From Pedosphaera sp. (lineage in GTDB: Bacteria > Verrucomicrobiota > Verrucomicrobiia > Limisphaerales > SIBH01), in contig JANOQV010000288.1 of assembly GCA_031414955.1 (NCBI GenBank), forward strand, positions 1-61,714: a DNA stretch of 61,714 bases, given 5' to 3'. The notes below the pieces were generated by a model. That model did no database searches. It worked only from the letters and a program-made list of their open reading frames with translations, and was not told the origin of the DNA. Shown in pieces: positions 43,587 to 61,714 of this stretch. Numbering within the stretch: position 1 is the stretch's first letter; each line of letters starts with the position of its first letter. Position numbers and translations under genes: made by a program.

Positions 43587-43716
43587 TCACGAATGGACCG
43601 GGCCTGGATCAGGTGTCGTCCCGCCCGTCATCATTGGTTTCAATCCGCCCGGGCAACTTCTCGCATGGCCTTGCCCGCCGCATCCGTGGTAATCCGTGTC
43701 CATCCATGGTTGAAAA

Positions 43717-45891
43717 ATGAAAACACTGTTGCGCTCGCTGGTGCGCTGGCTCTTTGGCTTTCGCGCCTTCAATGAGGAAGTGCTGAAGACGCCCGGCCCC
43801 GTCCTGCTCCTGCCCAATCACGTCTCGTGGCTCGACTGGCTCTTCCTGCTCGTCTGCACCGACGGCGACTGGAAGTGCGTCGTCTCGCAGAAGACGGCCC
43901 AGACTTCCTGGCTGCATCGCAAGATCATGATCAACCGCCGGACCTTCCCCATCGACACTGATTCGCCCTACGCGGTGAAACACATGGCGGAGTTTCTGTC
44001 GAAGGGCGGACGGCTCGCGTTGTTCCCGGAAGGAAGGCTCTCCCGCACCGGCACATTGATGAAGCTCTTCGATGGCACCGGCTTCCTGCTCCACAAGACG
44101 GGGGCGAAGGTCATCACCTGTTACTTGCGCGGCGCGCACCGGCTGCCGTGCTCACCCAATCCCAACCGGAAGAAATGGTTCCCGACCGTCACGGCGCACT
44201 TCAGCCCTGCGCTGACGCCACCGCAGGTCGCACACCTCAGCACGTCGCAGGCGCGCGCGCTGTTCACCAACTGGCTGCGCGACCAGATGGTCCTGCAACA
44301 GTTCGAGACGGAGATGCGATTCGGCCCGCAAACGCTGGCCGAGGCCGTGGTCGAGACGGCGACGCGATTTCCGAAGCACGTCGTATTGCAGGATGTAACC
44401 ACGGCGCTGACCTACAAAAGACTGCTGGTCGGCGTGGATTTGATGGCGCGGCGGCTGGGTGCCGCACTCCAGGTGGCTCCGCTCGCGCGGCGACCGGATG
44501 GCCTCGCAGCGCGAGGCCAACCACCACACGTCGGCGTGCTGCTGCCCAACGTGAACGCGACGCCGGTGGTTCTCCTCAGCCTCTGGTCGCTCGGCTTGGA
44601 GCCGGCCATCTTCAACTTCTCGACCGGACCCGCCATCATGCTCGCCTGCGCGCAACTCGCGGGGGTGAAACAAATCGTCACCTCGCGCGCGTTCCTCGAA
44701 CGCGCCAAGCTCGATGTGGCTCCGCTCACCGGCGCGGGGATCGAGTTCATCTACCTCGAAGACATCCGCGCCCGCATCTCCGGCGGGGCGAAACTGGCCG
44801 CGCTGTTGAAACAAACCTTCGTGCCCGGCCTGCGCATCGCGCCGACGGATCAGAACTCCGCCGCCGTCATCCTGTTCACCAGCGGCTCCGAGGGGGTGCC
44901 GAAAGGCGTCGAGCTGACGCATCGCAACATTCTCGCCAACCTGCGCCAGATGCTCGCCGTCACCGACCTCACCGACCGCGACAAGATTTTCAACGCCATG
45001 CCGTTGTTCCATAGCTTCGGGCTGACGGTCGGCACGCTGCTGCCGTTGGTGCGCGGCATGACGGTGTTCATCTATCCGTCACCGTTGCATTACCGCGTGG
45101 TGCCCACAGTTTTCTATCAGGCCGACTGCACCATCATGCTGGGCACGAACACCTTTCTGAACGGCTATGCGCGCAAGGCGAACACCTACGACTTCCGCAG
45201 CCTGCGCTACATGTTCGCGGCGGCGGAGAAGTTGCAGGAGGCGACCGCCACGGCCTGGGCGCAACGCTTCGGTGTGCGCGCGCTCGAAGGCTACGGCGCG
45301 ACCGAGTGCGCGCCGTGCGTGAGCGTCTGCACGCCGCTCCAACCCAGGCATGGCTCGGCCGGACGTCTCATGCCCGGCATGGAATACAAACTTGAAACAG
45401 TCGAAGGCGTGACGACCGGCGGCCGACTCTTCGTGCGCGGCCCGAACGTGATGAAGGGCTACCTGAACGCCGACGCCAACGCGAAGTTCCTCGCCCTGGG
45501 TGGATGGTACGACACCGGCGACATCGTGCGCGTGGACGAGGAAGGCTTTCTCTACATCCAAGGCCGGCTGAAACGCTTTGCCAAAATCAGTGGCGAGATG
45601 GTGAGTCTCACCGCCGTCGAGGACGCGCTGGCCGGAGCCTTCCCGCACTATGGATTGCGCTGTCAGGTCGCCGTCATCGCGCGGCTCGACGAGGACAAGG
45701 GCGAGAAGTTGATCGCCGTGAGCAACGAAGCGCGGCTGACGCTCGACGAAGTGCGCGCCGCGATCAAGGCGAAGGGCCTGCCCAACATCGCCGCGCCGCG
45801 CGAGGTGAAGTTCGTCCACGAAATCCCCAAGCTCGGCACGGGCAAGACGAATCACCGCGAGTTGGAGAAGCTCATCACCGAGAAAGCCTGA
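43717..45891 (+). CDS. aas: Aas-like bifunctional acyltransferase / acyl-ACP synthetase
   Basis: NHVSWLD and FPEGR (PlsC-like); FTSGSEGVPKG, EGYGATE, YDTGD, GRLKRFAKISGEMV. Confidence 0.88.
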   Translation: MKTLLRSLVRWLFGFRAFNEEVLKTPGPVLLLPNHVSWLDWLFLLVCTDGDWKCVVSQKTAQTSWLHRKIMINRRTFPIDTDSPYAVKHMAEFLSKGGRLALFPEGRLSRTGTLMKLFDGTGFLLHKTGAKVITCYLRGAHRLPCSPNPNRKKWFPTVTAHFSPALTPPQVAHLSTSQARALFTNWLRDQMVLQQFETEMRFGPQTLAEAVVETATRFPKHVVLQDVTTALTYKRLLVGVDLMARRLGAALQVAPLARRPDGLAARGQPPHVGVLLPNVNATPVVLLSLWSLGLEPAIFNFSTGPAIMLACAQLAGVKQIVTSRAFLERAKLDVAPLTGAGIEFIYLEDIRARISGGAKLAALLKQTFVPGLRIAPTDQNSAAVILFTSGSEGVPKGVELTHRNILANLRQMLAVTDLTDRDKIFNAMPLFHSFGLTVGTLLPLVRGMTVFIYPSPLHYRVVPTVFYQADCTIMLGTNTFLNGYARKANTYDFRSLRYMFAAAEKLQEATATAWAQRFGVRALEGYGATECAPCVSVCTPLQPRHGSAGRLMPGMEYKLETVEGVTTGGRLFVRGPNVMKGYLNADANAKFLALGGWYDTGDIVRVDEEGFLYIQGRLKRFAKISGEMVSLTAVEDALAGAFPHYGLRCQVAVIARLDEDKGEKLIAVSNEARLTLDEVRAAIKAKGLPNIAAPREVKFVHEIPKLGTGKTNHRELEKLITEKA
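44470..44525. repeat. REPIN-like element (family B) inserted in-frame in aas
   Basis: CAGGTGGCTCCGCTCGCGCGGCGACCGGA..GCCTCGCAGCGCGAGGC..CCACC matches intergenic 47351-47418 (17-nt identical arm). Confidence 0.85.
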
Positions 45892-45894
45892 GCC

Positions 45895-46542
45895 GTGCCT
45901 CTTCACCCACCAGAAACACTTCCCGGCGCCGGCAAGGTGGCAAGCGTTGTCGTCTTGCTGGGTTTGATCATGGTTGTGATCGGCGTCGTGGCTGCGCTGT
46001 CGAGTTGGAGACAAGTGCGGGCCGCACGCGAGCAGACCGTATTGCCGGTGAAGTTGCAGTCCGGCCTGGAATTCCGCACGCGAGTCCGGACGTCCGCCAA
46101 ATGTGAGTTGGTCATCGAACTTGCATTGAGCCGGAATGAAGGAGTGCCGAGGGACTTGCTTGAGGAGGCGCTGACTCGGGAAACGAATGCGGTGAACATC
46201 GAATGGAAAATACGACAGGCCGGGACCATTTGCTTTTCTGGCAGTTCCACAAACGCGCGCAAACTTTTTACCGGCAGTGCCGCCGCCACAACGAAAGGCA
46301 TCGGACAATTCAAGCCGCGCCACGCTGGAACGTATGAATTCGAGGCCACTATTAACTCGGACCTGCCGGAATTGGAACGCACCCATCCGCGCATAATCAT
46401 CAGGCCGAATCGCGCGTTCGCGATGCACGCATCCGTCGGCGGAAGCATCAGCATCTTCGCCGGGATCGTTCTCGGCCTCGTCGGATTGATTTTGATTCTG
46501 CTCGCGCAACGCGAGCCGCGCAGCGTCGCAAGGCGAGTTTGA
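45895..46542 (+). CDS. Hypothetical membrane protein (N- and C-terminal TM helices)
   Basis: ORF fills the gap between aas and the hydrolase; two hydrophobic segments; codon usage less host-like. Confidence 0.6.
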   Translation: MPLHPPETLPGAGKVASVVVLLGLIMVVIGVVAALSSWRQVRAAREQTVLPVKLQSGLEFRTRVRTSAKCELVIELALSRNEGVPRDLLEEALTRETNAVNIEWKIRQAGTICFSGSSTNARKLFTGSAAATTKGIGQFKPRHAGTYEFEATINSDLPELERTHPRIIIRPNRAFAMHASVGGSISIFAGIVLGLVGLILILLAQREPRSVARRV

Positions 46543-46566
46543 CGTTGGTTCACGCCAAATCATTTC

Positions 46567-47319
46567 ATGGATGCATCCGAACAACTTGCCTTGCGGATTC
46601 ACGGCGATGCTTCGCTGCCCACGCTCATCTACCTGCCCGGCCTGCACGGCGACTGGACGCTCGTCTCCAGCTTTCGCGCGGCGGTGGGCGGGCGGGTGCG
46701 CTTCGTGGAATTTGCCTATCCGTGCCGCGCGGATTGGACGCTGGACGATTACGCGCAGGCGGTGATCGGAGAACTCGCGGCGCAGGGCATCAGCAGCGGC
46801 TGGATTCTTGCGGAGTCGTTTGGCTCGCAGGTGGCGTGGAAAATTTTGGAACGCGCGGATGTGCGCTTTCAACCGCTCGGCTTGATTCTCGCCGGTGGTT
46901 TCGTGCGGCATCCGGTGATCTGGGGCGTGCATCTGTTTCACCTGGCCCAGCGTTCCATGCCGTGGACTTGCTACCGGCTGCTGCTCCAGTTCTATGCGTG
47001 CTATGCGAGGCTCCGGCATCGGCACGCGCCCGAAACGCTGGCCAGCATCGGTGAGTTTCTGAGTCGCCGGACGAAGGAAGACAACCTCGCCATTGCCTCG
47101 CGGTATCCGCTCGTGGCCCGGCGCACCATGCTCCCAGTGTTCGCGTTGAGCGGCTTCTTCGATCCGATCGTGCCGTGGCCGATGGTGCATCCGGGGCTGC
47201 GGCGGAATTGCCCTGGCTTCCGCGAACGGCGCGTCATCTTCAACGCCGACCACAATGTCCTCGGCACCGCGCCGCAGAAATCGGCGGAGCAGATTTTGCG
47301 GTGGATGAGACCACCGTAG
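46567..47319 (+). CDS. Alpha/beta hydrolase
   Basis: [13 protein letters not shown] nucleophile elbow, DPIVP, ADH. Confidence 0.8.
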
Positions 47320-47350
47320 CCGCGACCCGTAGGAGCGCGGGTGATTGGTT

Positions 47351-47418
47351 CAGGTGGCCCCGCTCGCGCTGCGAGCGGAGTGCCAGCCGCCTCGCCTCGC
47401 AGCGCGAGGCTTGCCACC
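47351..47418. repeat. Intergenic REPIN-like element (family B)
   Basis: GGTGG-CCCCGCTCGCGCTGCGAGCGG...GCCTCGCAGCGCGAGGC-TTG-CCACC: two internal palindromes in inverted arrangement. Confidence 0.8.
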
Positions 47419-47444
47419 TTCGCCCTGCTTCGTATCGTCTGCCC

Positions 47445-48233
47445 GTGAGTCCAATCCGCGTCACCATTTGGAACGAGTTCGTGCATGAACGCACGAATCC
47501 CGTCGTCGCGCAGATTTACCCGCACGGCATCCACGCCACGCTCGCCGCCGCCCTCGGGAAAGACGTTTGCCTCCAAATTTCCACCGCCACCCTCGACGAA
47601 CCCGATCACGGCCTGACTGAACAACGCCTCGCCGAGACCGATGTTCTCCTGTGGTGGGGCCACGCGAAGCACGACGCGGTGAGCGACGAGGTGGTGGCCC
47701 GAGTCCACGCGCGCGTGAACGCCGGCATGGGGCTGCTCGTCCTGCACTCCGGGCATTACTCGAAACTTTTCAAGAAGCTCATGGGCACCACCTGCGTCTT
47801 CCGCTGGCGCGAAGCCGGCGAGCGCGAGCGCCTGTGGGTCGTGAACCCGGCGCACGAGATCGCCGCCGGACTCGGCGAGTGCATTGAGATTCCGCACAGC
47901 GAAATGTACGGCGAGCCGTTCACCATCCCTGAGCCGGAGGAACTGGTCTTCATCTCGTGGTTCGAGGGTGGCGACGTGTTGCGCAGCGGTTGCTGCTGGA
48001 CGCGCGGCGCGGGACGCATCTTCTATTTCAGTCCCGGCCACGAGCTGTATCCGATTTACCATCAACCGGAAATCCAGCGCGTGATTCGCAACGCCATCCA
48101 CTGGGCCAAACCGCGCGGCCCGGCGGCGAACGTCCCGCGCAACGTGCCGGTCGAGGAAGCGCGGGAAACAATCGCCCACCAGGGCGCGTCCTTGCATGAT
48201 GAGCGGGGAACTCTTTCTGAGCGCCAGACCTGA
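47445..48233 (+). CDS. ThuA (trehalose utilization)-family protein, cytoplasmic type
   Basis: [58 protein letters not shown] start. Confidence 0.9.
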
Positions 48234-48249
48234 TACTGCCGTTGAGAAT

Positions 48250-48435
48250 ATGAGCGAGGAGCCATCTTCAGAAACAAATCCGAGAGTCACGGCCAAAGGG
48301 CTTGATAGTGAATCGCCCAAGCAACGCATGAGCATGGATAAGTTTTTCGAATGGAACCAACGTGAATTGCAGCGGCTCTATCCCGACGGCAATTATCCCA
48401 GAGCTCAACCGTGTCCAGTTCCCTTCGAAATGTGA
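48250..48435 (+). CDS. Small hypothetical protein in a lower-GC insert
   Basis: 61-aa ORF ending PCPVPFEM; its stop overlaps the RLP ATG (TGATG). Confidence 0.4.
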   Translation: MSEEPSSETNPRVTAKGLDSESPKQRMSMDKFFEWNQRELQRLYPDGNYPRAQPCPVPFEM

Positions 48436-49853
48436 TGAATCTTTCGCCGTCCGCCCTCCAATCCCTCTGGCACGACTTCGACGCGCGTGAGGAACTGCTG
48501 CGTCGCATCGTCACCGAACGGCTCGCCGCTTCGCCGGCCCCTCAGCTCAACGACGCCATCGTTGCCACCTACTTCTTCGCCCTCCGTTCCTGGTCGTTGG
48601 AACATGCGGCCAAGGAAATCAGCTATCACGCCACCAGCGGGACGAAGGATGTTCCGCCCGGCTCTTTGCTGGAGCAATGCACCGGCAAACTCGTGGGCGT
48701 GGATGCGTGGGACAGCACCGGGCGTCTCGGGCTGCTCCACGTTGCGTTTCCCCTCAAGATGCTGCTCCAGGGCGACGGGCATCTGACCTCGACGGACCTG
48801 CTGCACACGGCGGCGGGCGCGATTCTCTTCGACGTGTATGAGAACCAGGACGCGCGGCTGATCGGCTTGCAGATTCCCGACCGGGTCATCCGCGCCTTCC
48901 CCGGCCCGGCCCACGGCCCGGCCGGCGTGCGGGCGCTGACGAACTGGCCGGCGGACGCGCCGATGTTCGGCACGATTCTCAAACCCACCGCCGGCATCAC
49001 CGCTGATGACGTGGGTCGGCTCATGAACGACGTGGCGGCCTGCCCGCTGTTCTGCTTCGTGAAGGAGGATGAGAACCTCTATCCACGCCTCGACTACTCG
49101 CCGGCCGGCGAGCGCACTCGGCGTGCGGTTGACGCCATCAAGCGTGCGCAAGACCAGCGCGGCGGGCGCGGGCTGATTTTCTCCCCGCACATCACCTGCG
49201 CGCCGCATGAGATGCTTGAAACCCTGAACGCCGTGCTAGAAGCCGGGGCCACCGGCGCGATGTTCAGCGAATCGTTTGCGGGCGGAGCCGTGCGCATGGT
49301 CCGCGAGGCGACGAAGCATCTGCCCAAGCCGCCGACCATTTACGGCCACAACGCCGGCATCGGCGTGAAGACCCGCAGCATCTTCCGCGAAGTGATTGAT
49401 CTGCTCGCGCGCCTGGATGGAATTGATTTCCGCCAGACCGCGCCGGTGCGGCCGGGCACGCCGTTCCTGAAACCGTACGGACTCGAATGGGAAGCCAGCG
49501 AGCGCACGCTCTCCATGCCTTTGCCCGGAATCAAGCACACGACCATCGTGCGGGCCGGTGCGCTCGATCAGGGCAACATCAGCCTGAACCTGGCCGATGC
49601 CGAGCGGCGCGGCCTCAGTGACGGCGTGATGTTCCTCGCCGGCTCGGCCATCAATTCGATCAAGGACGCGCGCGGCAAGCCGAATCCAAAGCTTGGGGCG
49701 GAAGCGATGGAACAAGCCATCGAAGTGCATCGCGGTGGCGAACTGAGCGGAGTGCCGGCCGAAGAACACACGCGCAGCTTGTGCGCGCTGGCGGAACAGA
49801 AAAAGCTGACTGCTTTGCGCGAGGCGCTCAGGCAGCGGTATCCGGAATACTGA
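48435..49853 (+). CDS. RuBisCO-like protein (form IV RLP), divergent
   Basis: FPGPAHG..GVR, GTILKP, FVKEDENL (carbamylated Lys/Mg motif), GHNAG, LARLDG.D, AGSAI. Confidence 0.85.
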   Translation: MNLSPSALQSLWHDFDAREELLRRIVTERLAASPAPQLNDAIVATYFFALRSWSLEHAAKEISYHATSGTKDVPPGSLLEQCTGKLVGVDAWDSTGRLGLLHVAFPLKMLLQGDGHLTSTDLLHTAAGAILFDVYENQDARLIGLQIPDRVIRAFPGPAHGPAGVRALTNWPADAPMFGTILKPTAGITADDVGRLMNDVAACPLFCFVKEDENLYPRLDYSPAGERTRRAVDAIKRAQDQRGGRGLIFSPHITCAPHEMLETLNAVLEAGATGAMFSESFAGGAVRMVREATKHLPKPPTIYGHNAGIGVKTRSIFREVIDLLARLDGIDFRQTAPVRPGTPFLKPYGLEWEASERTLSMPLPGIKHTTIVRAGALDQGNISLNLADAERRGLSDGVMFLAGSAINSIKDARGKPNPKLGAEAMEQAIEVHRGGELSGVPAEEHTRSLCALAEQKKLTALREALRQRYPEY

Positions 49854-49874
49854 TGGACAAGTTTCAATCAAACG

Positions 49875-49971
49875 CGAGACCGGAAAGTCTCGCCATCGGC
49901 CGGCTGGCAAGCCGGCGTTACGGCGTAGCGCCGGCTTTCCAGCCGGCCGGTAGGGACACTTTCCAGTGTCC
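49875..49971. repeat. Two family-C REP-like units in inverted orientation
   Basis: 49875-49921 CGAGACCGGAAAGTCTCG..GCCGGCTGGCAAGCCGGCGTTAC and 49925-49971 GTAGCGCCGGCTTTCCAGCCGGC..GGACACTTTCCAGTGTCC. Confidence 0.85.
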
Positions 49972-49992
49972 AGTTCCGAGCCGCCAGGCCGT

Positions 49993-51066
49993 ATGAAAAA
50001 AGACTCCCGCCTCCTCCGCCTCGGCATTCTCGGCTGCGGGCCGATTGCCCAAATCGCGCACTTCGACGCCTGCCGCAAGGCGCGCAACGCCGAGTTGTAT
50101 GCCATCTGCGATCTCGCCGACGATCTGCGTGAGAAGATGACCGCCATCCATGAACCACGCGTGGTTTATCGCAGCTACGACGAGATGCTCGCCGACCCGC
50201 AGGTGGAAGCTGTCATCATCGGCGTGGCAGACCAGTATCATGTGCCGCTGGCCTTGAAGGCGATTGCGGCGGGCAAGCATGTGCTGCTGGAGAAACCGCT
50301 CGGCGTGAACGTCGAGGAAGGCGAGCGACTGCGCGCCACTGTTCACGCTTCCAAAGTCACGCTGCAAGTCGGCAACAACCGCCGCTTCGATCCCGGCATC
50401 GCCTTCGCGCGGAAGTTCATCCAGGAGGAAATCGGCCAGGTCATCGCGCTCAAGGCTTGGTATTGCGACTCCACCCATCGCTACACGATGACGGACAATC
50501 TCCAGCCCATCGTCCGCCAGAGCGCGAATGCGAAACGTCCCGAGGGCAATCCCAAGGCGGACCGGCGCCGTTACTTCATCCTCACCCACGCCAGTCACTT
50601 GGTGGATACGGCGCGGTTTTTTGGCGGGGAAATCATCAGCGTGCGCGCCCGGCTCTCCGAGAAGTGCGGCGCGTTCACCTGGTTCATCGAAGTGGAATAC
50701 GCCAGCGGCGCGCTCGGCCATCTCGACCTCACGATTCCGGTGCGCGGCGACTTCGAGGAGGGATTTCAAATCTACGGCGAGCACGGCAGCGTGAAGGGGC
50801 AGGTCTTCCTGCCGTGGTATCACAAGAGCAGCGTGGTCGAGTGCTTCTCGGAGAAGGACCGCCAGTTCCATCGCCCGCTCGGCGAGGATGCCCACACCTA
50901 CAAGCTCCAGATCGAGGGCTTCGCCGACACTATTCTTCACGGCCAACCGCAGCACGGCGCGAACGTGGACGACGGCGTGGCCGCGATGCGGGCGTTGGTG
51001 GCGATTGCGCGCAGTGTCGAGAGCGGCGGGGCGGTGAGGCTGGCCGAGGTGGAGGGGGCGGTGTGA
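49993..51066 (+). CDS. Gfo/Idh/MocA-family oxidoreductase
   Basis: LGILGCGPIA, AGKHVLLEKP, NRRFDP, H..D. Confidence 0.92.
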   Translation: MKKDSRLLRLGILGCGPIAQIAHFDACRKARNAELYAICDLADDLREKMTAIHEPRVVYRSYDEMLADPQVEAVIIGVADQYHVPLALKAIAAGKHVLLEKPLGVNVEEGERLRATVHASKVTLQVGNNRRFDPGIAFARKFIQEEIGQVIALKAWYCDSTHRYTMTDNLQPIVRQSANAKRPEGNPKADRRRYFILTHASHLVDTARFFGGEIISVRARLSEKCGAFTWFIEVEYASGALGHLDLTIPVRGDFEEGFQIYGEHGSVKGQVFLPWYHKSSVVECFSEKDRQFHRPLGEDAHTYKLQIEGFADTILHGQPQHGANVDDGVAAMRALVAIARSVESGGAVRLAEVEGAV

Positions 51067-51068
51067 GG

Positions 51069-51206
51069 AAAATCCAAATCCCAAATCCCAAATCCCAAAT
51101 AAACTCCAAACTCCAAGTTCCAAAAGGCTGCGCGCCGACGGGCTGGGAGCTTGAAGGTTGGAATTTGAAATTTGTTTGGGATTTGGAGTTTGGAGTTTGG
51201 AATTTG
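51069..51206. repeat. Inverted heptamer-repeat element (AAATCCC)n ... (TTTGGAG/TTTGGGA)n
   Basis: Read directly; can form a long imperfect hairpin and fills the intergenic gap. Confidence 0.85.
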
Positions 51207-51211
51207 TAGCC

Positions 51212-52042
51212 ATGCACCTCGGCATCTTCGCCAAAACTTTCCCGCGCCCGTCGTTTGCCGAAACTCTCGACGCCGTCGCGTCGCACGGATTGCGCTGCAT
51301 TCACTTCAACTTCACCAGCCTCGGCCTGCCGACGATGCCGGAGCGGGTGGAGCCACAGGTGATCGCCGGTATCCGCGAGGCTTGCGTGGCGCGTGACATC
51401 GGCATCGCGGGCGTCTCGGGCACCTTCAACCTGATCGACCCGGACGTTTCGAGCCGGCGCGATCGGCTGGCCCGGCTGCCGGTGCTGGCCCAGGCCACGC
51501 GCGAGTTGGGCTGCGAACTCATCACTCTCTGCACGGGCACGCGCGACCCGGAGGACATGTGGCGTGACCATCGCGATAACACCTCACCGGGCGCGTGGCG
51601 CGATTTGTTGCACAGCATGGAGCAGGCGATTGGCGTGGCCGAGCAGCATGGCATCGTGCTCGGAGTCGAGCCGGAGACGGGCAACGTGGTCAGTTCGGCG
51701 CGCAAAGCCCGGCAGCTTCTCGATGAACTGCACTGTTCGCGCGTGAAGGTTGTGATCGATCCGGCGAACCTGTTTCATGCCGGGCGGGTCGAACGCATCC
51801 GCGAAACCATGGAAGAGGCTTTTCAATTGCTCGGCACGGACATCGTGATGGCGCACGCCAAGGAACTGCCGCCCCACGGCGCGAGCGGCAGCCTGGCGCC
51901 GGGACGCGGCGTGATTGATTGGAACTACTACTTCGGCGTGCTGGCCCGAATGGATTTTCGCGGCGCGATGATCCTGCACGGCCTCTCCGAGGCGGATGTG
52001 TCGCCGGGCGTCCAGTTCCTCCGTTCCAAACTCGGCGACTGA
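51212..52042 (+). CDS. Sugar phosphate isomerase/epimerase (xylose-isomerase-like TIM barrel)
   Basis: LGVEPE..N, DPANL, MAHAKE, PGRG.IDW. Confidence 0.88.
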   Translation: MHLGIFAKTFPRPSFAETLDAVASHGLRCIHFNFTSLGLPTMPERVEPQVIAGIREACVARDIGIAGVSGTFNLIDPDVSSRRDRLARLPVLAQATRELGCELITLCTGTRDPEDMWRDHRDNTSPGAWRDLLHSMEQAIGVAEQHGIVLGVEPETGNVVSSARKARQLLDELHCSRVKVVIDPANLFHAGRVERIRETMEEAFQLLGTDIVMAHAKELPPHGASGSLAPGRGVIDWNYYFGVLARMDFRGAMILHGLSEADVSPGVQFLRSKLGD

Positions 52043-52043
52043 C

Positions 52044-52850
52044 ATGCCCTTCTTTGAGCACGACGGGATTCGATTTCATTACCGCGACAGCGGGGCCGGT
52101 CTGCCGTTTGTGTTTCAACACGGCTTGGGCGCGGACTTGAACCAGACCTTCGACTTGTTCCGTCCACCGCCCGGGGTGCGGTTGCTGGCCTTCGATTGCC
52201 GCGCGCATGGCGAGACGCGTCCGGTTGGTCCCGAGGACAAGGTGTCCGTCGAGCAGTCCACGGAAGATCTGGGCGCGTTCCTCGATGCACTCGGGATCGA
52301 AGGCGCGGTGGTCGGCGGCATCTCGATGGGCGCGGCCATCGCGCTGCGCTTCGCGCTGGAACATCCGGCGCGCGTGCTCGGCCTGGTGCTCTCACGCCCG
52401 GCCTGGCTGGACGAATCGCGCGCGGACGGCATGAAGGTGTTTTCCATCATCGCCGAGTTCATCCGCCAGCATGGCGCTTGGGAAGGCGCGAAGCGTTACC
52501 AGGACACCAAGGCCTATCAGCAGGTGCGCGCGACTTCACCGGACAATGCCAAGTCGCTGCTCGGCCAGTTCGCCGGGCCGCGCGCCGACGAGACGGTGGC
52601 CAAGCTGGAACGCATTCCGAAATACGTTCCATCCCACACCCGCGCGGACTGGCGGCGCATCAACGTGCCGACGCTCGTACTGGCCAACCGGCAGGATGAA
52701 ATCCATCCGTTCGAGTTCGGCGAAGTGCTGGCGCGGGAGATTCCCGGCGCACAATTCGTCGAGCTGACGCCCAAGGCGGTAAGCCTGGCGCGGCACGGCG
52801 AAGACGTGCAGCGGGCGCTGGCGGATTTTTTGGCCAGGCTTCCTGGTTGA
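52044..52850 (+). CDS. Alpha/beta hydrolase (candidate lactonase/esterase)
   Basis: FQHGLG, DCRAHG, GISMG, PTLVL...D..HP. Confidence 0.85.
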   Translation: MPFFEHDGIRFHYRDSGAGLPFVFQHGLGADLNQTFDLFRPPPGVRLLAFDCRAHGETRPVGPEDKVSVEQSTEDLGAFLDALGIEGAVVGGISMGAAIALRFALEHPARVLGLVLSRPAWLDESRADGMKVFSIIAEFIRQHGAWEGAKRYQDTKAYQQVRATSPDNAKSLLGQFAGPRADETVAKLERIPKYVPSHTRADWRRINVPTLVLANRQDEIHPFEFGEVLAREIPGAQFVELTPKAVSLARHGEDVQRALADFLARLPG

Positions 52851-52923
52851 AGGTCCAAGGGTGATTCGTGATTGGGATTGCGCGGTTGTCACGGATTCAC
52901 GATTCACGTATCACGTCCGCCGA

Positions 52924-53574
52924 ATGGTCAAATGTTCCACCTCACTCTGGTCCGCTGACTTGGCGAACCTCGGCGCGGAGATGCGCCGCGTCGAGCCGTT
53001 CAGCGAACGGTTCCACATCGATGTCGCCGACGGGCATTACGTTCACAACCTGCTGTTCTTCCCCGATCAAGTGAAGACGCTGCGGGCGCACAGCAAGCTG
53101 CCCTTCGAGGTCCACCTGATGTGTACCGACCCGTTGACCTGGATTGATCCATTCGTCGAGGCGGGCGCGGACATCATCATCTTCTGCCTGGATTCGGCGA
53201 AGAATCCGGGCGAGGTGCTGCGCGCGATCCAGTCGCACGGCAAGCAGGCCGGCGTGTCGCTGCTCATCACCGAAGGGCTGGAACTGGTCGAGCCGCATTG
53301 GAATGGCCTTGATGTGCTCTGCCTCGTCGGCACGGCCATGGGCATCAAGGGCGCATCCATGGACTCGGGCGTGCCGGGGAAGATTCGCGCGGCGCGGCGG
53401 CTGATCGATGAACGCGGGTTGAAGACGGTGATCGAGGCGGACGGCGGCATTCGTCGAGAAACTGTTCCGCTCATGGCAGCCGCCGGGGTGGATTACATCG
53501 TGCCTGGTTCACTGATCTTCAAAGAAAATCCCCCGGAGATGCGGAAGTGGCTGGCGACTTTGAAGCGCGACTGA
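52924..53574 (+). CDS. rpe: Ribulose-phosphate 3-epimerase-family protein
   Basis: S...AD..NL, HIDVADGHYV, EVHLM, IEADGGI, VPGS.IF. Confidence 0.85.
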   Translation: MVKCSTSLWSADLANLGAEMRRVEPFSERFHIDVADGHYVHNLLFFPDQVKTLRAHSKLPFEVHLMCTDPLTWIDPFVEAGADIIIFCLDSAKNPGEVLRAIQSHGKQAGVSLLITEGLELVEPHWNGLDVLCLVGTAMGIKGASMDSGVPGKIRAARRLIDERGLKTVIEADGGIRRETVPLMAAAGVDYIVPGSLIFKENPPEMRKWLATLKRD

Positions 53575-53577
53575 TTC

Positions 53578-54498
53578 ATGGCCCGGCGTAAACAGTTTGA
53601 CGTCCTCGGGCTCGGCTGCGCGGCGGTGGATGAGATCCTCTACGTCGATCAATACCCGCGCGCCGACGCCAAGATTCGGGTGTTGCGACGCGAGCGGCAC
53701 TGCGGCGGGTTGACGGCGACCGCGCTCGTGGCTGCGGCCCGGCTCGGGGCGAAGTGTGCGTTTGCCGGCACGCTTGGCTTCGACGAAGCCTCCACCTTCG
53801 TCCTCGAAACCTTGCGCCGCGAAGGCGTCGATGTGCAGCACGTCGTGCGTCGCCATGAGTCCGGCCCAGTGCGTTCGGTCATTGTCGTCGATGAGCGCCG
53901 TGGCACGCGCAATGTGTTTGCCAGCCTGGAAGGCGTGCGCGGTGCGGATGCGAAACTGCCTGCCCACCAAGTCATCGAATCCTCGCGCGTATTGCTCATC
54001 GATCACTTTGGCATCGCGGGGAACATCCGGGCGGCGCGCATCGCGCGGCGGGCCGGAATTCCGATCGTGTCTGATTTGGAGAATGGTGAAGGACCGCGAT
54101 TCAACGAACTGCTGGGGCTGGTGGACCACCTGATCTTTTCCCGGCGCATGGCGATGGACTTGTCAGGCGAGAAGGAACCGCGCCGTGCTGTGACCCGCCT
54201 GGCCGTCGCGGGCCGGGCGGCGGTCATTGTCACTTGCGGGAAGCGCGGCGCATGGTTTGTGGAGCACGGCCAGAAGCCCCGGCACTGCCCGGCCTTCCCG
54301 GTCAAAGCCGTGGACACCACGGGCTGCGGCGATGTGTTTCACGGTGCCTATGCGGCGGCGCTGGCGCGAGGCGAGGCACTGGAAGCGTGCATCCGTTTCG
54401 CGGCGGCAGCGGCGGCGCTGAAGGCGACCGGGCACGGCGGTCAGACCGGCATTCCCACTCGCGCGGCGGTGGAGAAACTTTTACGGCGGCACGGCTGA
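53578..54498 (+). CDS. PfkB/ribokinase-family sugar kinase
   Basis: GG..ATALVAAARLG, VTCGKRG, VDTTGCGDVFHG. Confidence 0.92.
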   Translation: MARRKQFDVLGLGCAAVDEILYVDQYPRADAKIRVLRRERHCGGLTATALVAAARLGAKCAFAGTLGFDEASTFVLETLRREGVDVQHVVRRHESGPVRSVIVVDERRGTRNVFASLEGVRGADAKLPAHQVIESSRVLLIDHFGIAGNIRAARIARRAGIPIVSDLENGEGPRFNELLGLVDHLIFSRRMAMDLSGEKEPRRAVTRLAVAGRAAVIVTCGKRGAWFVEHGQKPRHCPAFPVKAVDTTGCGDVFHGAYAAALARGEALEACIRFAAAAAALKATGHGGQTGIPTRAAVEKLLRRHG

Positions 54499-54570
54499 CC
54501 CGGGGCGTGCCCGAGGACGGGGATAATGAACTTGCGCCTCCGTGCTCATCTGTTTACCTCTGCGCGCGTG

Positions 54571-56796
54571 ATGAAGTGCCGCCTGCTCCTTGGCCTGTTT
54601 GCTTTCCTGTGCTGTCTGGCAGCGCAGGCCCAGGATACCAACGGTCCGATTAACATCGAGGGGGAGACCGGAGAATTTGATCGCGCCACCGGCCTCATTA
54701 CTTACCGCAATCACATCAACATCAATTACGGCCAGTCCGTGCTCAATGCTGACTTGCTGAAAGTGAACATGAAGACCAGCGAGGTCTTCGCCGAAGGCAA
54801 CGTGATCTTCCAGAGCGAAGGCGGACGCCTCTGGCGCGGGGACAAACTCACTTATAATTTCAAGACCAAAGTCATCACCGGCGATACTTTCCGGGCCGGA
54901 CAGCCGCCCTATTTCATCAGTGGCGATCATCTCCTTACCAACCCGACCAACCAGACCTACACCACGACCAACGCCTATTTCTCCACCGACGACAACGCCC
55001 GCCCCAACTACCGCATCCGCGCCCGCAAAGTCGTCATCATCCCCGGCCAGATGATCGAGGCCCAGCACGCCACGCTCTACCTCGGCGATGTGCCCGTCTT
55101 TTACTTCCCGTATTACAAGCGGTCCCTCGGGCGGCATCCGAACAACTTCGAGTTCCTCGCCGGCTATCGCAGTGAGTGGGGGCCGTATCTGCTCAACACC
55201 TACAACTGGTACTGGAACGAACGTCTCCACGGCGGACTGCACCTCGACCTGCGCGGTCAGCGTGGCCTCGGGGGGGGGGCGGGCATCCGCCTGCAGGATC
55301 CGACCCTGGGAGATGCCCTCTTCCGCTACTATTACGCCCACGACTTGAATCCGCGCGAAGTGGATGGCTTCCCCAAGCCGCCCGCCGACCGCCAGCGCGT
55401 GCTCTTCGAGTACGAGAAGATGATGCGCACCAACCTGACCGTGAAAAGCGCCGTCGCCTATCAGAGCGACCCCTTCATCGTGCGCGACTTCTTCGAGTCG
55501 GAATATCACGACAGCGTCCAGCCCAAGTCCTTCGCCGAGGTCAACCGGCAGTGGCCGAACTGGAACCTGAACACGCTCGCCCAATTCCGGGTGAACGATT
55601 TCGCCGAAACCGTCGAGCGCCTGCCCGACGTGAAGCTCACCGGCCTGCGCCAGCAAGTCGGCCCTACGCCGCTCTATTATGAGAGCGAAAGTTCCATGGG
55701 CTACTTCCGCCATGTCTTCCCCACCGAGACCAATGTTTTCTTCCCTGGCCTGACCAATTCCTTCGGAGCCTTCCGCGCCGACACCTATCATCAGGTCCTG
55801 CTGCCCTGGACGCTCTTTGGCTGGCTCAATGTGACTCCACGCGTCGGCGACCGCCTCACCTACTACAGCCAGGCCAACGAACGCGGCTCCACCACCGACG
55901 AGCAAGCCCGCAACATTTTCAACACCGGGGCCGAAATCACCTTCAAGGCCTCGCGCCTTTATCGTGGCGCCACCAGTCCGCTGCTGGCCGTGGACGGGCT
56001 CCGCCACATCCTCCAGCCTTCGGCCAATTACGCCTTCGTGCCGGAGCCAGATGACCGGCCGCGCGCGCTGCCCCAGTTCGATTCCGAACTGCCCACCAGC
56101 AAACTCCAACCCCTCGACTTTCCGGACTACAACTCCATCGACTCCATCGACAGCCGGCAGGTCGTGCGTCTTGGCCTGCACAACAAATTCCAGACCAAGC
56201 GCGACGGACGGCTCGACAACCTCATCAACTGGAATCTCTACACGGACTGGCGGCTGGAGCAGCACTACGAGACCAAGCTCGATCCCAGCACCCGCCAGCC
56301 CCTCGGTCTCGAGAAGCAAGGCCTCTTCAGCGATGTGTATTCCGAGTTGGATTTCAAACCGCGCACCTGGCTCACCCTCAGCTCTGAGTTGCGCTACAGC
56401 CCGGATCAAAAACTCCTCCGCGAGGCCAACCACACCCTGGCCCTCATGCCCAACGACGTGTGGAGCCTCTCCCTCGGCCACCGGTTCCGCCGCGACACCT
56501 CGGAACTGGGCGTGGGCAACAACCTCATCATTGGCACTTTGTTCTACCGGGTGAACGAGAACTGGGGCGTGCGCATCTCCGAGCACTTCGAGGCGCGCGA
56601 CGGTGTGCTCGAGTACCAGTATTACACCCTCTACCGCGACTTCCGCAGTTGGACCGGAGCACTCACCCTGCGCATTCGCGACAACCGTTCCGGACCAGAC
56701 GATTTCACCGTGGCCTTCGCCCTCTCGCTCAAAGCCTTCCCCCGTTTCGGCGTGGGCGATGACGCGGTGAGGCCAAGCAAGCTGGTGGGGGGGTAA
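54571..56796 (+). CDS. lptD: LPS-assembly outer membrane protein LptD
   Basis: Signal peptide, OstA-like N-domain (AD.L.VN.....AEGNV, GD.LTYNF.T), VPVFYFPY, ERLPD, RHILQP, beta-barrel character. Confidence 0.8.
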   Translation: MKCRLLLGLFAFLCCLAAQAQDTNGPINIEGETGEFDRATGLITYRNHININYGQSVLNADLLKVNMKTSEVFAEGNVIFQSEGGRLWRGDKLTYNFKTKVITGDTFRAGQPPYFISGDHLLTNPTNQTYTTTNAYFSTDDNARPNYRIRARKVVIIPGQMIEAQHATLYLGDVPVFYFPYYKRSLGRHPNNFEFLAGYRSEWGPYLLNTYNWYWNERLHGGLHLDLRGQRGLGGGAGIRLQDPTLGDALFRYYYAHDLNPREVDGFPKPPADRQRVLFEYEKMMRTNLTVKSAVAYQSDPFIVRDFFESEYHDSVQPKSFAEVNRQWPNWNLNTLAQFRVNDFAETVERLPDVKLTGLRQQVGPTPLYYESESSMGYFRHVFPTETNVFFPGLTNSFGAFRADTYHQVLLPWTLFGWLNVTPRVGDRLTYYSQANERGSTTDEQARNIFNTGAEITFKASRLYRGATSPLLAVDGLRHILQPSANYAFVPEPDDRPRALPQFDSELPTSKLQPLDFPDYNSIDSIDSRQVVRLGLHNKFQTKRDGRLDNLINWNLYTDWRLEQHYETKLDPSTRQPLGLEKQGLFSDVYSELDFKPRTWLTLSSELRYSPDQKLLREANHTLALMPNDVWSLSLGHRFRRDTSELGVGNNLIIGTLFYRVNENWGVRISEHFEARDGVLEYQYYTLYRDFRSWTGALTLRIRDNRSGPDDFTVAFALSLKAFPRFGVGDDAVRPSKLVGG

Positions 56797-56982
56797 AGTT
56801 CCCCCTTTTCCGACTGCCGGGTGGGAGGCCGTCGCTCCCAGGGCATGACTCGCGAAACTCGTCCCTCCAAGTGGATTCGCCAGCCGGAGGCAGGCCGCAC
56901 CGGTAACGAACGGGAAAATTCTTCAGCGTCCTATTGATTTGCCGACCTCGCTGCCTATAGTCGCGCCGTTTGAGAAATCATC

Positions 56983-58920
56983 ATGAGTGACACCGCCGTC
57001 GTCGGCCCGACGTGGAACATCGAGTCCGCGCGCAACCTCTATAACGTCCAGCGCTGGGGCTCGAAGTATTTTGACATCAACGAGGCCGGCCATGTCGTGG
57101 CCACGCCGCTCCAGGAGGCGGGCACGGCCGTGGATCTGACCGACGTGATCGAGGAGGCCAAAAGCCGCGGCTTGAAGTTTCCACTGCTGATTCGTTTCCA
57201 GGACATCCTGCGCCATCGGGTCGAGGCGTTGAACACCGCCTTCCGCAACTCGATCAAGGAGTTCAATTATCAGGGCGAGTATCGCGGCGTGTTCCCGATC
57301 AAGGTGAACCAGCTCCGCGAGGTGGTGGAGGAAATTCTCGAAGCGGGCAAGCCGTTCAACTTCGGTCTCGAGGTCGGGAGCAAGCCGGAGCTTTACGCCG
57401 GGCTGGCCATGCAGCCGGAGATGGGCAGCCTGATCATCTGCAACGGTTACAAGGACGCGGACTTCATCAGGATGGCGCTGCTCGGCATCAAGCTCGGCAA
57501 GCGCGTCATCATGGTGGTGGAGAAGTTGGAGGAGTTGAAGCAGATCATCACCATCTCGAAACAGATCGGGGTGGAGCCGCTCATTGGCATCCGCGCGCGG
57601 TTGCTGAGCAAGGGCGCGGGCAAGTGGGCCGAAAGCGGGGGCGAGAACGCGAAGTTCGGCCTGAGCACGGCGGAACTGCTGGCCGCCACCGAACTGATGA
57701 AGCGCGAAGGGCTGGCGCATTGTTTCAAGCTGCTCCACTTCCACATCGGCTCGCAGGTGCCGGACATTCTCACGGTCAAGAAGGCGGTGCAGGAGGCGGC
57801 GCGCTTCTACGCCAAGCTGCGCAAGATGGGCTACGCCCTGGAATACGTCGATGTCGGCGGCGGTCTGGGCGTGGATTACGACGGCTCACGATCGGCCTTT
57901 GAAAGCTCCACCAACTACTCGTTGCAGGAGTACACCAACGACATCGTTTATTACATCGCCGATGTGTGCAACGCCGAGGGCGTGCCGCATCCAACCATCG
58001 TCAGCGAGAGCGGCCGCGCCATCGTCGCGCATCACAGCGTCCTCATCGTCGAAGTGTTCGGGGCGATCGAGAAAAGCCCGCCGGGGATTCAATTCGAGTA
58101 CGGCGAGAACGAGATTCCCATCGTGCGTGAGCTGCTCGACATGCGGAAGAACCTGGCCAAGCTGAACAAGCTCGAAGCCTTTCACGACGCCCAGGAGCGC
58201 CGCGAGGACGCGCACCAGATGTTCACGCTGGGCCTGATGGAATTGCCGGACAAGGCCAAGATCGAATGCCTCTACTGGGAGATTTCGCAGGCCGTGGTCG
58301 AGAGCTTCAAGGGCCAGGCCTACATCCCCGAGGAAATCCGCAAGCTCGAGGACAGCCTCGCCGATCAATACCTCTGCAATTTCTCCGTCTTCCAGTCGCT
58401 GCTCGATCACTGGGCGCTGGGACAATTGTTTCCCATCATGCCCATCAGCCGGCTGGATGAGCGGCCCACGCGCGAGGGCACGCTGGTGGACATCACCTGC
58501 GATTCAGACGGGCAGATCAACAAGTTCATCGACCTGCGCGATGTGCGCGACACGCTGCCCATGCATCCGCTGCGGCAGAATGAGAACGGCCAGGAGCCGT
58601 ACCATCTCGGCTTTTTCCTGATGGGCGCGTATCAGGACATCATGGGCGACCTGCACAATCTCTTTGGCCGCGTGAATGAGATGCACGTCTTCCTCGACCC
58701 GGACGAGGCGGCGGGATATTACATTGAGGAGATCATCGAGGGCACAACCATCGTGCAGGCGTTGACCTCGGTGCAGTACGACGAAAAGGATCTGGCGCGG
58801 CAGTTGAAGGCGCAGATCGACGACGCCATCAAGAGTGACCGGATCAAGCCATCCGAGGGGATGCGATGGCTGGACGAGTATGAACGCGGTCTCCGCGAAT
58901 ACACTTACCTCTCGTTCTGA
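56983..58920 (+). CDS. speA: Biosynthetic arginine decarboxylase
   Basis: FPIKVNQ, GLEVGSKPEL, KFGL, HFHIGSQ, DVGGGLGVDYDG, DITCDSDG, GAYQDIMGDLHNLFG. Confidence 0.97.
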   Translation: MSDTAVVGPTWNIESARNLYNVQRWGSKYFDINEAGHVVATPLQEAGTAVDLTDVIEEAKSRGLKFPLLIRFQDILRHRVEALNTAFRNSIKEFNYQGEYRGVFPIKVNQLREVVEEILEAGKPFNFGLEVGSKPELYAGLAMQPEMGSLIICNGYKDADFIRMALLGIKLGKRVIMVVEKLEELKQIITISKQIGVEPLIGIRARLLSKGAGKWAESGGENAKFGLSTAELLAATELMKREGLAHCFKLLHFHIGSQVPDILTVKKAVQEAARFYAKLRKMGYALEYVDVGGGLGVDYDGSRSAFESSTNYSLQEYTNDIVYYIADVCNAEGVPHPTIVSESGRAIVAHHSVLIVEVFGAIEKSPPGIQFEYGENEIPIVRELLDMRKNLAKLNKLEAFHDAQERREDAHQMFTLGLMELPDKAKIECLYWEISQAVVESFKGQAYIPEEIRKLEDSLADQYLCNFSVFQSLLDHWALGQLFPIMPISRLDERPTREGTLVDITCDSDGQINKFIDLRDVRDTLPMHPLRQNENGQEPYHLGFFLMGAYQDIMGDLHNLFGRVNEMHVFLDPDEAAGYYIEEIIEGTTIVQALTSVQYDEKDLARQLKAQIDDAIKSDRIKPSEGMRWLDEYERGLREYTYLSF

Positions 58921-58927
58921 GGCGGCC

Positions 58928-59653
58928 ATGCCCGAGGCCGATCGCAACGCTCTGCTGCTCGGTGCGCTGCGCCGCCTGGTGCGGGCTCTCTCGGCACTTT
59001 TCTGGGGTCTGCCCATCACGCTGGTGCTGGCCGTGCAGACGGGCAAAGGCGACTGGTTCAAACCGCTGGGCTTTGTCCCGATCACCTGCGGCATGACCAT
59101 GCTCTTCTACGGCACAATTCTCCTGAGCAAGTTTCAATCACAGGAGCGCGTCTGGCGCAACGCGGTCGAACGGGCGCGGCTCGTGGCGCTGGTCAACCTC
59201 GGCCTCTCACCCTTCCTCTTTTTCTGGAGCAAGGTGCCGGGACAGATGCTCTTCACCGTCATGGTCGTGGCGCTCGTGTTCGGCATGCTGGCCTTCCTTT
59301 TCCTGCTCAACACCGTGCTGGCGCGGCTCGCGGCGATGCTGCCCGATGAAACCCTGCGTGGCGAAACCAAGGTTTTCACCCGCCTGAACCAGACCATCCT
59401 CCTCACTCTTATCGGCACCCTGCCCTTCTGGTTCGTGCTGCACCGGGCAGAAACGCTGCCGCGGGTGGTGGTGGAAGCGTTGCTCCTGTTCCAACGTGGG
59501 GGCGTGATGCTCGAACTGCTGCTGATCATGTTCTTCCTCCTCCTGCCCGTGGCCATGACCATGGCCCTGCTGTGGAAGACGAAGGAAACGATCATGGCCG
59601 GCGTGTTCTCCAACCGGGGCAACGAACTGCCGCGCGCGGCGGATGAGCCGTAG
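58928..59653 (+). CDS. Hypothetical multi-pass membrane protein
   Basis: About six hydrophobic helices; host-like codon usage; starts 7 nt after the speA stop. Confidence 0.75.
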   Translation: MPEADRNALLLGALRRLVRALSALFWGLPITLVLAVQTGKGDWFKPLGFVPITCGMTMLFYGTILLSKFQSQERVWRNAVERARLVALVNLGLSPFLFFWSKVPGQMLFTVMVVALVFGMLAFLFLLNTVLARLAAMLPDETLRGETKVFTRLNQTILLTLIGTLPFWFVLHRAETLPRVVVEALLLFQRGGVMLELLLIMFFLLLPVAMTMALLWKTKETIMAGVFSNRGNELPRAADEP

Positions 59654-59741
59654 GCGCCCGGCCGGGATGGGCAACGGCCCGGCGCGCGCGAAGAAATGGT
59701 CTCGCGAAGGGAAGGCCGGCGGCGAAGAGAAAAGATTGATC

Positions 59742-59843
59742 GGTAGGGCGACGCTGTCCTCAGCGCGCCGGGGTGGGTCGTGGGCGGTGCAGGAACTCTC
59801 CTCCGTTCGTGGCCCGGCGCGCTGGGGACAGCGCCGCCCTACC
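59742..59843. repeat. Intergenic GTAG-type REPIN (family A) between convergent genes, followed by (GACCCTC)x3
   Basis: GGTAGGGCGACGCTGTCCTCAGCGCGCCG ... CGGCGCGCTGGGGACAGCGCCGCCCTACC inverted arms. Confidence 0.9.
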
Positions 59844-59868
59844 TGACCCTCGACCCTCGACCCTCGAC

Positions 59869-60330
59869 CTATTTGATCCTGATGATCAGCACCATGTCGC
59901 AATACGGCGGAAAGCTCGAGGCCGGGTCGCTGGTATAATTGCCCGGCGGCAACACCGTCACATCCGCGCCCGACTGCACCGAGCCGCCGTTGATGTTCAA
60001 GGGCAGCCCATGCGAATGATTCTCCGCGCCGCCGGTGCCGCCGCTGAAGTTCGCCCCGCGCAGGAAGACCGGCACCCCGCCCTGCGCGCCGTTCAAGTCC
60101 TGGAGATTCTGCCCGAAGTACGGCGAGGCCGCATCCGTCACCGCCTGCCCGTTGCATTCCATCCACGAGTCCGAAAGCGCGGGCGTGCCGGGCCGGGTCT
60201 TGTCCCAATGCTTCACCGTGCCGATCGGCTCCAGCGCATCGATGAGCGCCTTGAGGGAATTGAATTGATCCCGCCACTGTTGCGAGATGAGGCCCGCGGC
60301 GTGCGGGGGAAAGTTTGGATCGAAGGGCAT
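59869..60330 (-). CDS. Small phage-tail-collar-like domain protein
   Basis: 'PIGTV..W......W.ECNGQ.......DL.....FLRG....GGTGGAE.H.H....PPY......I' collar-like pattern; N-terminus MPFDPNFP. Confidence 0.7.
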   Translation of the reverse strand: MPFDPNFPPHAAGLISQQWRDQFNSLKALIDALEPIGTVKHWDKTRPGTPALSDSWMECNGQAVTDAASPYFGQNLQDLNGAQGGVPVFLRGANFSGGTGGAENHSHGLPLNINGGSVQSGADVTVLPPGNYTSDPASSFPPYCDMVLIIRIK

Positions 60331-60380
60331 AAATAAAAAAGGCAGGCCCGGGAGGGCGCCCACAGGCGCGGTCCCGGGCC
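60331..60380 (-). terminator. Terminator/attenuator-like hairpin + U-tract directly before the collar gene ATG
   Basis: GGCCCGGGA..GCGCC-loop-GGCGC..TCCCGGGCC stem (60345-60380), then TGCC TTTTTTATTT ATG on the minus strand. Confidence 0.6.
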
Positions 60381-60390
60381 GCTCCTTGGA

Positions 60391-61712: not shown

Positions 61713-61714
61713 TT

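Follow-up and report, generated by a model that had tools for sequence, protein, structure and literature searches.

RuBisCO-like proteins (RLPs, form IV) share the fold of the RuBisCO large subunit, and only a handful of them have been characterised so far (PMC10176493). The RLP of Rhodospirillum rubrum is a 5-methylthioribulose-1-phosphate 1,3-isomerase of the methylthioadenosine (MTA)-isoprenoid shunt; it converts a ketose 1-phosphate, methylthioribulose 1-phosphate, into 1-methylthio-xylulose and -ribulose 5-phosphates with inverted numbering, a cupin coming next (PMC6302742). The RLPs of D-apionate catabolism include the 3-oxo-isoapionate-4-phosphate decarboxylase OiaX and a transcarboxylase/hydrolase, MtnW/YkrW is a 2,3-diketo-5-methylthiopentyl-1-phosphate enolase with a monophosphate substrate, and in Ochrobactrum anthropi an RLP that is described as a homologue of the rhizobial RLP (PMC8914248) ends the D-hamamelose pathway as an oxygenase. 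Two recent RuBisCO surveys collapse RLPs or filter them out (PMC13454268, PMC12663927). In this study, we describe an RLP-centred gene system at positions 47445-54498 of a stretch of 61,714 nucleotides (the window; contig C288, JANOQV010000288.1) from the 6.5 Mb, 95.9% complete genome of Pedosphaera sp. (GCA_031414955.1). The system is real and conserved and is apparently uncharacterised, and its substrate would be a monosaccharide.

An earlier note, made from the letters of this DNA alone, had listed seven co-oriented genes of named families, and this reading holds: seven intact open reading frames (ORFs) lie on the + strand, all scoring above the curated Pfam cut-offs (ThuA 125.5, RuBisCO_large 46.7, GFO_IDH_MocA 72.6, AP_endonuc_2 112.3, Abhydrolase_1 72.5, Ribul_P_3_epim 143.9 and PfkB 159.6 bits). 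An eighth gene, on another contig of the genome, belongs with them. The genes are as follows; module A is one of two alternative partner sets described below, and TIM stands for triose-phosphate isomerase.

47445..48233, + strand: ThuA-family gene (Pfam), adjacent, co-oriented and accessory
48435..49853, + strand: RLP, form IV, 472 amino acids (Pfam RuBisCO_large, fold, tree and active-site map), core
49993..51066, + strand: Gfo/Idh/MocA NAD(P) oxidoreductase, 357 amino acids from its ATG (Pfam), module A
51212..52042, + strand: AP_endonuc_2 TIM-barrel metalloenzyme (Pfam), module A
52044..52850, + strand: alpha/beta hydrolase (Pfam), module A, also kept without the RLP
52924..53574, + strand: Rpe-family epimerase paralogue (Pfam), module A
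53578..54498, + strand: PfkB kinase, likely a ketose 1-kinase (closest solved relative YihV), core
contig C217, 43107-44447, - strand: uronate-isomerase-fold amidohydrolase without Pfam or NCBIfam match (structure comparison), core partner apart from the operon

The starts listed are the best-placed ones, the gaps from ThuA through PfkB measure 201, 139, 145, 1, 73 and 3 bp, and the third-position GC of the seven ORFs (0.77-0.83) is that expected for real genes in this genome. Contigs of run X1, possibly the source run, tile the region with zero differing letters and one short uncovered piece in and just after an intergenic repeat. A 61-codon ORF at 48250-48435, overlapping the RLP start, was rejected, having neither codon bias nor a homologue in the genome or in the 80 loci compared below.

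A genome scan for relatives of the RLP yielded 92, the best 80 of which were taken as loci; these were counted at an identity of at least 40%, and many are incomplete. Their sources include Verrucomicrobiota, Planctomycetota, Chloroflexota, Poribacteria, Latescibacterota, Acidobacteriota, Acidimicrobiia, Omnitrophota, Handelsmanbacteria and a deltaproteobacterium, and the set of RLP, Gfo, TIM barrel, hydrolase, Rpe-like protein and PfkB recurs across about ten lineages. Tautonia sociabilis and Tautonia sp. JC769 (L045 and L052) are cultured carriers of the RLP. Gfo neighbours the RLP in 47 of the 80 loci, the TIM barrel in 38, the isomerase-fold gene without Pfam match in 35, the hydrolase in 29, the Rpe-like gene in 28 and PfkB in 26, and rarer neighbours are a cupin and an MtlD-like gene (9 each), an aldolase (class I) and ThuA (5 each). 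The earlier note had proposed co-conservation of the genes as a check; all five downstream genes occur together in 16 of the 80 loci, 15 of which also hold the isomerase-fold gene, and the gene order is conserved far beyond chance. Of 151 genomes of the same order, 18 gave the RLP, whereas a sample of 300 others from the phylum gave none. Within the 151, which are incomplete and related so that the counts are not independent tests, the 18 RLP genomes compare with the 133 others as 16 versus 5 for the isomerase-fold gene, 16 versus 8 for PfkB, 17 versus 1 for Gfo, 17 versus 2 for the Rpe-like gene, 18 versus 12 for the hydrolase and 5 versus 19 for ThuA. The last count, together with its rarity among the loci, shows that ThuA does not track the RLP, and its reading as a core member of the operon is not supported; it is accessory and was recruited in this order only. 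In six genomes of the same genus or family in which the RLP was not found (loci L109-L114; genomes G302, G307, G309, G308, G305 and G312), ThuA adjoins the hydrolase, directly in five and at a distance of about 700 bp in the sixth, and between the two genes there is no RLP, Gfo or TIM barrel. The pair can therefore persist alone, which suggests that it has a use of its own.

Two sets of partners alternate around the RLP. Module A (Gfo, TIM barrel, hydrolase and Rpe-like) and module B (cupin and MtlD-like polyol-phosphate dehydrogenase) bring one dehydrogenase each and share none of the 80 loci, at least nine of which hold module B without Gfo or hydrolase. The MtlD-like enzyme retains an RxPxRKL motif, which we take to bind phosphate. 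The isomerase-fold gene is also present in 14 of the 33 loci that lack Gfo, and in the complete loci it usually lies directly after the kinase; with its 35 loci and 16 of 18 RLP genomes it belongs to the RLP system, and the common core is the RLP, the isomerase-fold gene and the kinase. Near the RLP of nine loci (L008, L011, L021, L027, L037, L038, L048, L053 and L058) we also observed URO-D/MtaA-like methyltransferase-fold genes. With identities of 23-60% they do not form a single orthologous group, and they are a weak pointer to a possible methylated sugar.

The AlphaFold model of the RLP (predicted local distance difference test score 88) has the RuBisCO large-subunit fold and matches RLPs and RuBisCOs with Z 30-34 over 340-409 residues. 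MtnW/YkrW-type enzymes are among the top structural matches, with 4NAS at Z 34.1 (387 residues, rmsd 3.0) and 3NWR, 3FK4 and 2ZVI level with it, and identity to solved RuBisCO and RLP structures is 18-25% among the 50 solved entries listed. The protein falls below every NCBIfam cut-off: the models of carboxylating RuBisCO (forms I-III) give 75.7 against 497 bits (form III) and 64.9 against 438, OiaX gives 62 against 700, TIGR03332 (MtnW) 24.4 against 513.6 and PRK09549 51.5 against 409. Its best 120 homologues are at least 71% identical, and in a library of 50% clusters one full-length cluster forms the core, with a few deeper branches at 36-48% and other RLPs near 30%. The clade is internally 60-90% conserved and about equally far from all solved members. 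An RLP phylogeny, also proposed in the earlier note, was drawn as an IQ-TREE quick tree of 60 rows (four fragments omitted), which covers form I, OiaX/DUF1537 and MTA-context RLPs but holds no named form II, form III, MtnW, C. tepidum, R. rubrum or O. anthropi sequences; in it a branch of length 1.83 (SH-aLRT 100) sets the 26 clade rows off from the rest, separate from all three of the covered groups. Long branches meet at P0253, the sister of the clade on this tree, and the sister group is unsure. The expectation of a form IV, non-carboxylating RLP in a co-conserved sugar cluster is borne out, and the protein matches no characterised RLP clade and forms a long-branch form IV clade of its own, apparently uncharacterised. 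Name searches of databases returned generic names only, and no description of the clade or gene set was found in the literature searched, which left outside most subscription papers and the supplements, where RLP trees might name the clade.

The active site was mapped in spinach numbering on 121 aligned close homologues, with three form I proteins as reference and with residue roles that we assume to carry over. The equivalents of K175, K201, D203, E204 and H294 are invariant (121/121), and the metal motif K201-x-D203-E204 corresponds to K210/D212/E213 of the protein itself. The P1 phosphate backbone site (positions G381, G403 and G404) is retained as G/A, G and S. On the other side stand replacements fixed in all 121 sequences (E60 to H, N123 to A, K177 to T, H327 to Q and S379 to A) or in 120 (R295 to N), and no conserved loop-6 lysine is evident, the nearest candidate for K334 being K in 60 and Y in 54 of the 121. 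The residue set of carboxylating RuBisCO (N123, K177, R295, H327, K334 and S379) is therefore not that of the RLP, and P2 residues are likewise lacking in RLPs from mtnA/mtnK contexts. Invariants specific to the clade are Y64, H124, S278, R333 and R373. With the Mg/enolisation and P1 residues kept and the carboxylase and P2 residues lost, the RLP does not have the residue set that CO2 fixation requires and is predicted to carry out enolisation on a monophosphate, carboxyl transfer being disfavoured. Deeper branches of the clade (P0122, P0124, P0126, P0128 and P0139; 33-48% identity) show more variation: in some of them Gln replaces His65, and in one the K177 position is occupied by Lys.

The partner on C217 is 78% identical to the copy at locus L080. 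Its structural matches are headed by 4I6V (Z 35.7) and BH0493 (Z 31-32), with uronate isomerases at Z 26-32 and the next unrelated family at Z 17. The equivalents of the HxH motif, H49, W325-W326 and D355 are kept, and HxH, WW and Asp are invariant in 22 of 22 sequences; Y50 is changed to M and R357 to Y, and neither alignment places an Arg at the carboxylate-binding R170 position, a region that aligns with low confidence. We presume that HxH, H49, WW and D355 serve as Zn and catalytic residues as they do in uronate isomerases and that Y50, R170 and R357 are the substrate residues.

For the kinase the best match in the Protein Data Bank (PDB) is YihV, the sulfofructose kinase of sulfoglycolysis (135.7 bits against 112 for the next). 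In YihV, D13, K27, S95, D162 and D244 are assigned to binding of the ketofuranose C1-C4 hydroxyls and C1, and K27-R138-N109 to the sulfonate pocket (PMC8006165). In the present kinase the residues matching D13, K27, D162 and D244 do not vary (20/20) and the one matching S95 hardly does, whereas N109 and R138 have no equivalents, leaving only the Lys of the sulfonate triad. Since the ketose-binding residues are kept and N109/R138 lost, the enzyme is likely a ketose 1-kinase and not a sulfosugar kinase. The likeness to the isomerase-kinase-aldolase layout of sulfoglycolysis extends to aldolase and DeoR neighbours in some loci, and sulfoglycolysis itself was rejected because the triad is not kept. 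The Rpe-like protein keeps catalytic H31, D33, H64 and D173, roles that we assume from the family, with two pocket methionines changed and the loop GFGG turned into GIKG; it scores below the Rpe equivalog TIGR01163 (146 against 212.6 bits), and a second rpe-family gene on contig C3 is likely the housekeeping copy. The TIM barrel keeps E153, D183 and H215, and a phmmer search of it against PDB gave no match. Conserved S94, D218 and H251 mark the alpha/beta hydrolase. Gfo has inositol 2-dehydrogenase as best NCBIfam match (117 against a cut-off of 355 bits) and DgpA as its second PDB match.

By these comparisons the system resembles a sugar-phosphate RLP pathway, and the tests made place the RLP outside the OiaX, MtnW and MTA-isomerase groups. 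A cupin stands beside the RLP in nine loci as in the R. rubrum system, but the protein is separate on the tree from the plasmid RLPs L102/L103, stand-ins for the R. rubrum class, and the cluster has a PfkB kinase and an isomerase-fold amidohydrolase as partners in place of mtnA/mtnK. MtnW/YkrW differ in sharing only 20-25% identity, by the Ala at the N123 position here, and by the lack of any mtnB above its cut-off in the genome. OiaX shares the sugar-catabolic context, the single kinase and similar replacements at N123, K177 and H327, but the RLP is only 25% identical to it, and its DUF1537 kinase, TIM-type isomerase and RpiB partners are absent from the cluster. The hamamelose RLP, compared by its description, is alike in ending a sugar pathway. 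Its substrate is reportedly a bisphosphate, and the lost P2 site argues against such a substrate here.

From the observed genes, clade, residues and co-occurrence we infer the reactions, their order and the substrate class of a breakdown route for a monosaccharide, which we favour tentatively, at somewhat less than an even chance. The C217 partner would isomerise an aldose to a ketose, and the PfkB kinase would phosphorylate it at C1. The RLP, with Mg on carbamylated Lys210, Asp212 and Glu213, would then enolise the ketose 1-phosphate and move its C2 carbonyl to C4, after which the former 1-phosphate would count as a terminal 5- or 6-phosphate, and an interchangeable module (Gfo, TIM barrel and Rpe-like here; cupin and MtlD-like elsewhere) would lead on by redox and epimerase steps to pentulose 5-phosphate or fructose 6-phosphate. 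The R. rubrum reaction offers a precedent for the shift (PMC6302742), and single loci have fructose-flavoured neighbours, with a GH32 gene beside DeoR and PfkB in L050 and the class I aldolase in its five loci. A bolder version, unlikely but far from negligible, is a hitherto undescribed, redox-neutral end-swap of a six-carbon ketose 1-phosphate by this deep RLP lineage, either ketohexose 1-phosphate to hex-3-ulose 6-phosphate or a keto-uronate phosphate to a beta-keto acid losing CO2. If true, the swap on fructose 1-phosphate would yield an intermediate of the ribulose-monophosphate cycle, and the RuBisCO superfamily would gain a new reaction, serving as a new entry of sugar into central metabolism in about ten lineages, most of them uncultured. 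Several observations weigh against the breakdown route. The scheme leaves no step for the hydrolase, although all 18 RLP genomes have it, and PfkB is found in only 6 of the 33 non-Gfo loci. In the TIM barrel the second Glu of two-base epimerases, present in UlaE and tagatose 3-epimerase, is replaced by an invariant His256, which makes the role assigned to this protein weak. The clade is no closer to RLPs of MTA-salvage context (48.9 bits) than to OiaX (68.6 bits), and N123 to a small residue, K177 to T/A and H327 to Q are common to it and the decarboxylase. The lost P2 positions each have an invariant arginine one residue away (R333 and R373); these two could be structural or make up a new anion site. 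Among the 96 of 202 flanking ORFs scanned, neither a transporter nor a glycosidase recurs, and there was no substrate clue.

The earlier note had read the locus as dehydrogenase, lactonase, kinase, RLP decarboxylation or cleavage and epimerase on a possibly branched sugar. In this apionate- or hamamelose-like form Gfo would oxidise the sugar, the hydrolase would open a lactone, the kinase would phosphorylate, and the RLP would decarboxylate or cleave a 3-keto acid phosphate. Known RLPs act in this way (PMC10176493, PMC6302742), the three substitutions common with OiaX fit it, as do Gfo and hydrolase in nearly all RLP genomes, and R333/R373 might bind a carboxylate. The proposal is so far unsupported, however, and we consider it unlikely: the OiaX model score and the tree set the RLP apart, R295, K334 and S379 are kept in OiaX and lost here, and the DUF1537 kinase, which adjoins the RLP in 7 of 7 plasmid loci of the OiaX/DUF1537 clade, was not found in the genome, where the kinase is ketose-1-kinase-like. 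The hydrolase stays with ThuA in the six genomes that yielded no RLP, the polyol-phosphate dehydrogenase module takes the place of the Gfo module in at least nine loci without Gfo or hydrolase, and the isomerase-fold partner is left unexplained. That partner, with its uronate isomerase fold and the presumed catalytic equivalents, would be accounted for if a hexuronate gave a 5-keto acid that is then phosphorylated at C6, with the RLP shifting the carbonyl to C3 and the resulting beta-keto acid decarboxylating to pentulose 5-phosphate for the Rpe-like enzyme. The UxuA family was not found in the genome, the kinase keeps K27 of YihV, and canonical UxaC was found in none of the 18 RLP genomes and in 47 of the 133 others. 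We nevertheless regard this variant as improbable, because the genome already has a BH0493-type uronate isomerase together with UxaE and UxaA/GarD families, so that ordinary hexuronate use does not need the RLP cluster, because the UxaC exclusion may reflect lineage, and because Y50 and R357 are replaced in the partner and no Arg aligns at the carboxylate-binding position, in its low-confidence stretch. A simple replacement of canonical UxaC by the partner was also considered and dropped: the 0/18 exclusion looked supportive, but the BH0493-type enzyme removes the need and the kin are not independent. The UxuA family shows no exclusion (8/18 RLP genomes versus 38/133 others). The BH0493-type gene itself lies at contig C251, 12267-13682, on the - strand; it is missed by the Pfam UxaC model, and absence calls from PF02614 are therefore unsafe in this order.

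ThuA, Gfo and AP_endonuc_2 are the family set of non-hydrolytic glycoside breakdown, and such enzymes could release or remodel a 3-keto sugar from glycosides that kinase and RLP would salvage as a 2-ketose phosphate. The DgpA match and a TIM barrel that is not a two-Glu epimerase would agree with this, but ThuA does not track the RLP, module B has neither ThuA, Gfo nor TIM barrel, and Gfo reaches only 35-64 bits on 3-dehydrogenase models with cut-offs of 650-750, so we hold this route to be very improbable. Scarcely better placed, and quite improbable, is internal repair or recycling of a self-made sugar phosphate or cyclitol product in place of an external-sugar route. The operon in the window has no transporter or regulator, none recurs among the scanned flanking ORFs, DeoR is found in only 5 of 80 loci, and the inositol 2-dehydrogenase match of Gfo points the same way; against it stand the patchy spread among close genomes and its absence from the 300 others, typical of accessory catabolism, and the isomerase-kinase pair, which is typical of sugar entry.

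Other known pathways were considered as well. The earlier note had seen no rbcS, phosphoribulokinase or methionine-salvage genes in the window, and this is confirmed: rbcS, the phosphoribulokinase family and a second RuBisCO-family gene were not found in the 95.9% complete genome, and a Pfam scan of 34 further window ORFs gave no methionine-salvage gene. The Calvin cycle was rejected on the first two absences and the lost catalytic residues of the RLP. Methionine salvage was rejected on scores far below the cut-offs; mtnA lies on another contig, and the mtnB model reaches 64.5 against 137 bits in the genome. Neighbours of the aldolase, FGGY, DeoR and Rpe families had brought up autoinducer-2 (Lsr) catabolism, which was rejected for low scores (LsrF 127 against 297, LsrK 106 against 528).

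The intergenic regions of the operon contain two repeats that are not part of the pathway:

49854..49989, strand not assigned: REP-like palindromic repeat in the gap between RLP and Gfo, with 50 blastn matches on 24 contigs of the genome
51067..51211, strand not assigned: inverted repeat with CCAAAT-type units in the gap between Gfo and TIM barrel, with 135 blastn matches on 53 contigs

A third, different palindromic repeat at 47320-47444 has 37 blastn matches in the genome, and reads of other organisms accumulate on all three. A promoter and terminator scan gave 3 and 9 sites where 1.9 and 10.1 would be expected, and Rfam had no match within 43000-61714. Elsewhere in the window a separate cluster at 1244-6210 encodes a 3-keto-disaccharide hydrolase (DUF1080), two ThuA-domain genes and a DUF7133 protein, and a sugar ABC transporter (binding protein, ATPase and permease) lies at 16510-20695, about 27 kb upstream of the operon, with no link shown. 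At the contig end (59869-61122, - strand) are two ORFs of 164 and 243 amino acids without Pfam match at 1e-10, the first of which is phage tail-collar-like by eye only.

The name "ribulose-bisphosphate carboxylase large chain", common in databases for proteins of this clade, should not be taken as a sign of CO2 fixation. With a clade remote from all solved members, internally conserved and accompanied by a fixed set of partners, a possible new enediolate reaction becomes directly testable with isomerase, kinase and RLP. Such a reaction would bear on the chemistry that preceded carboxylation, and on the turnover of sugars by abundant uncultured Verrucomicrobiota, Planctomycetota, Chloroflexota and Poribacteria.

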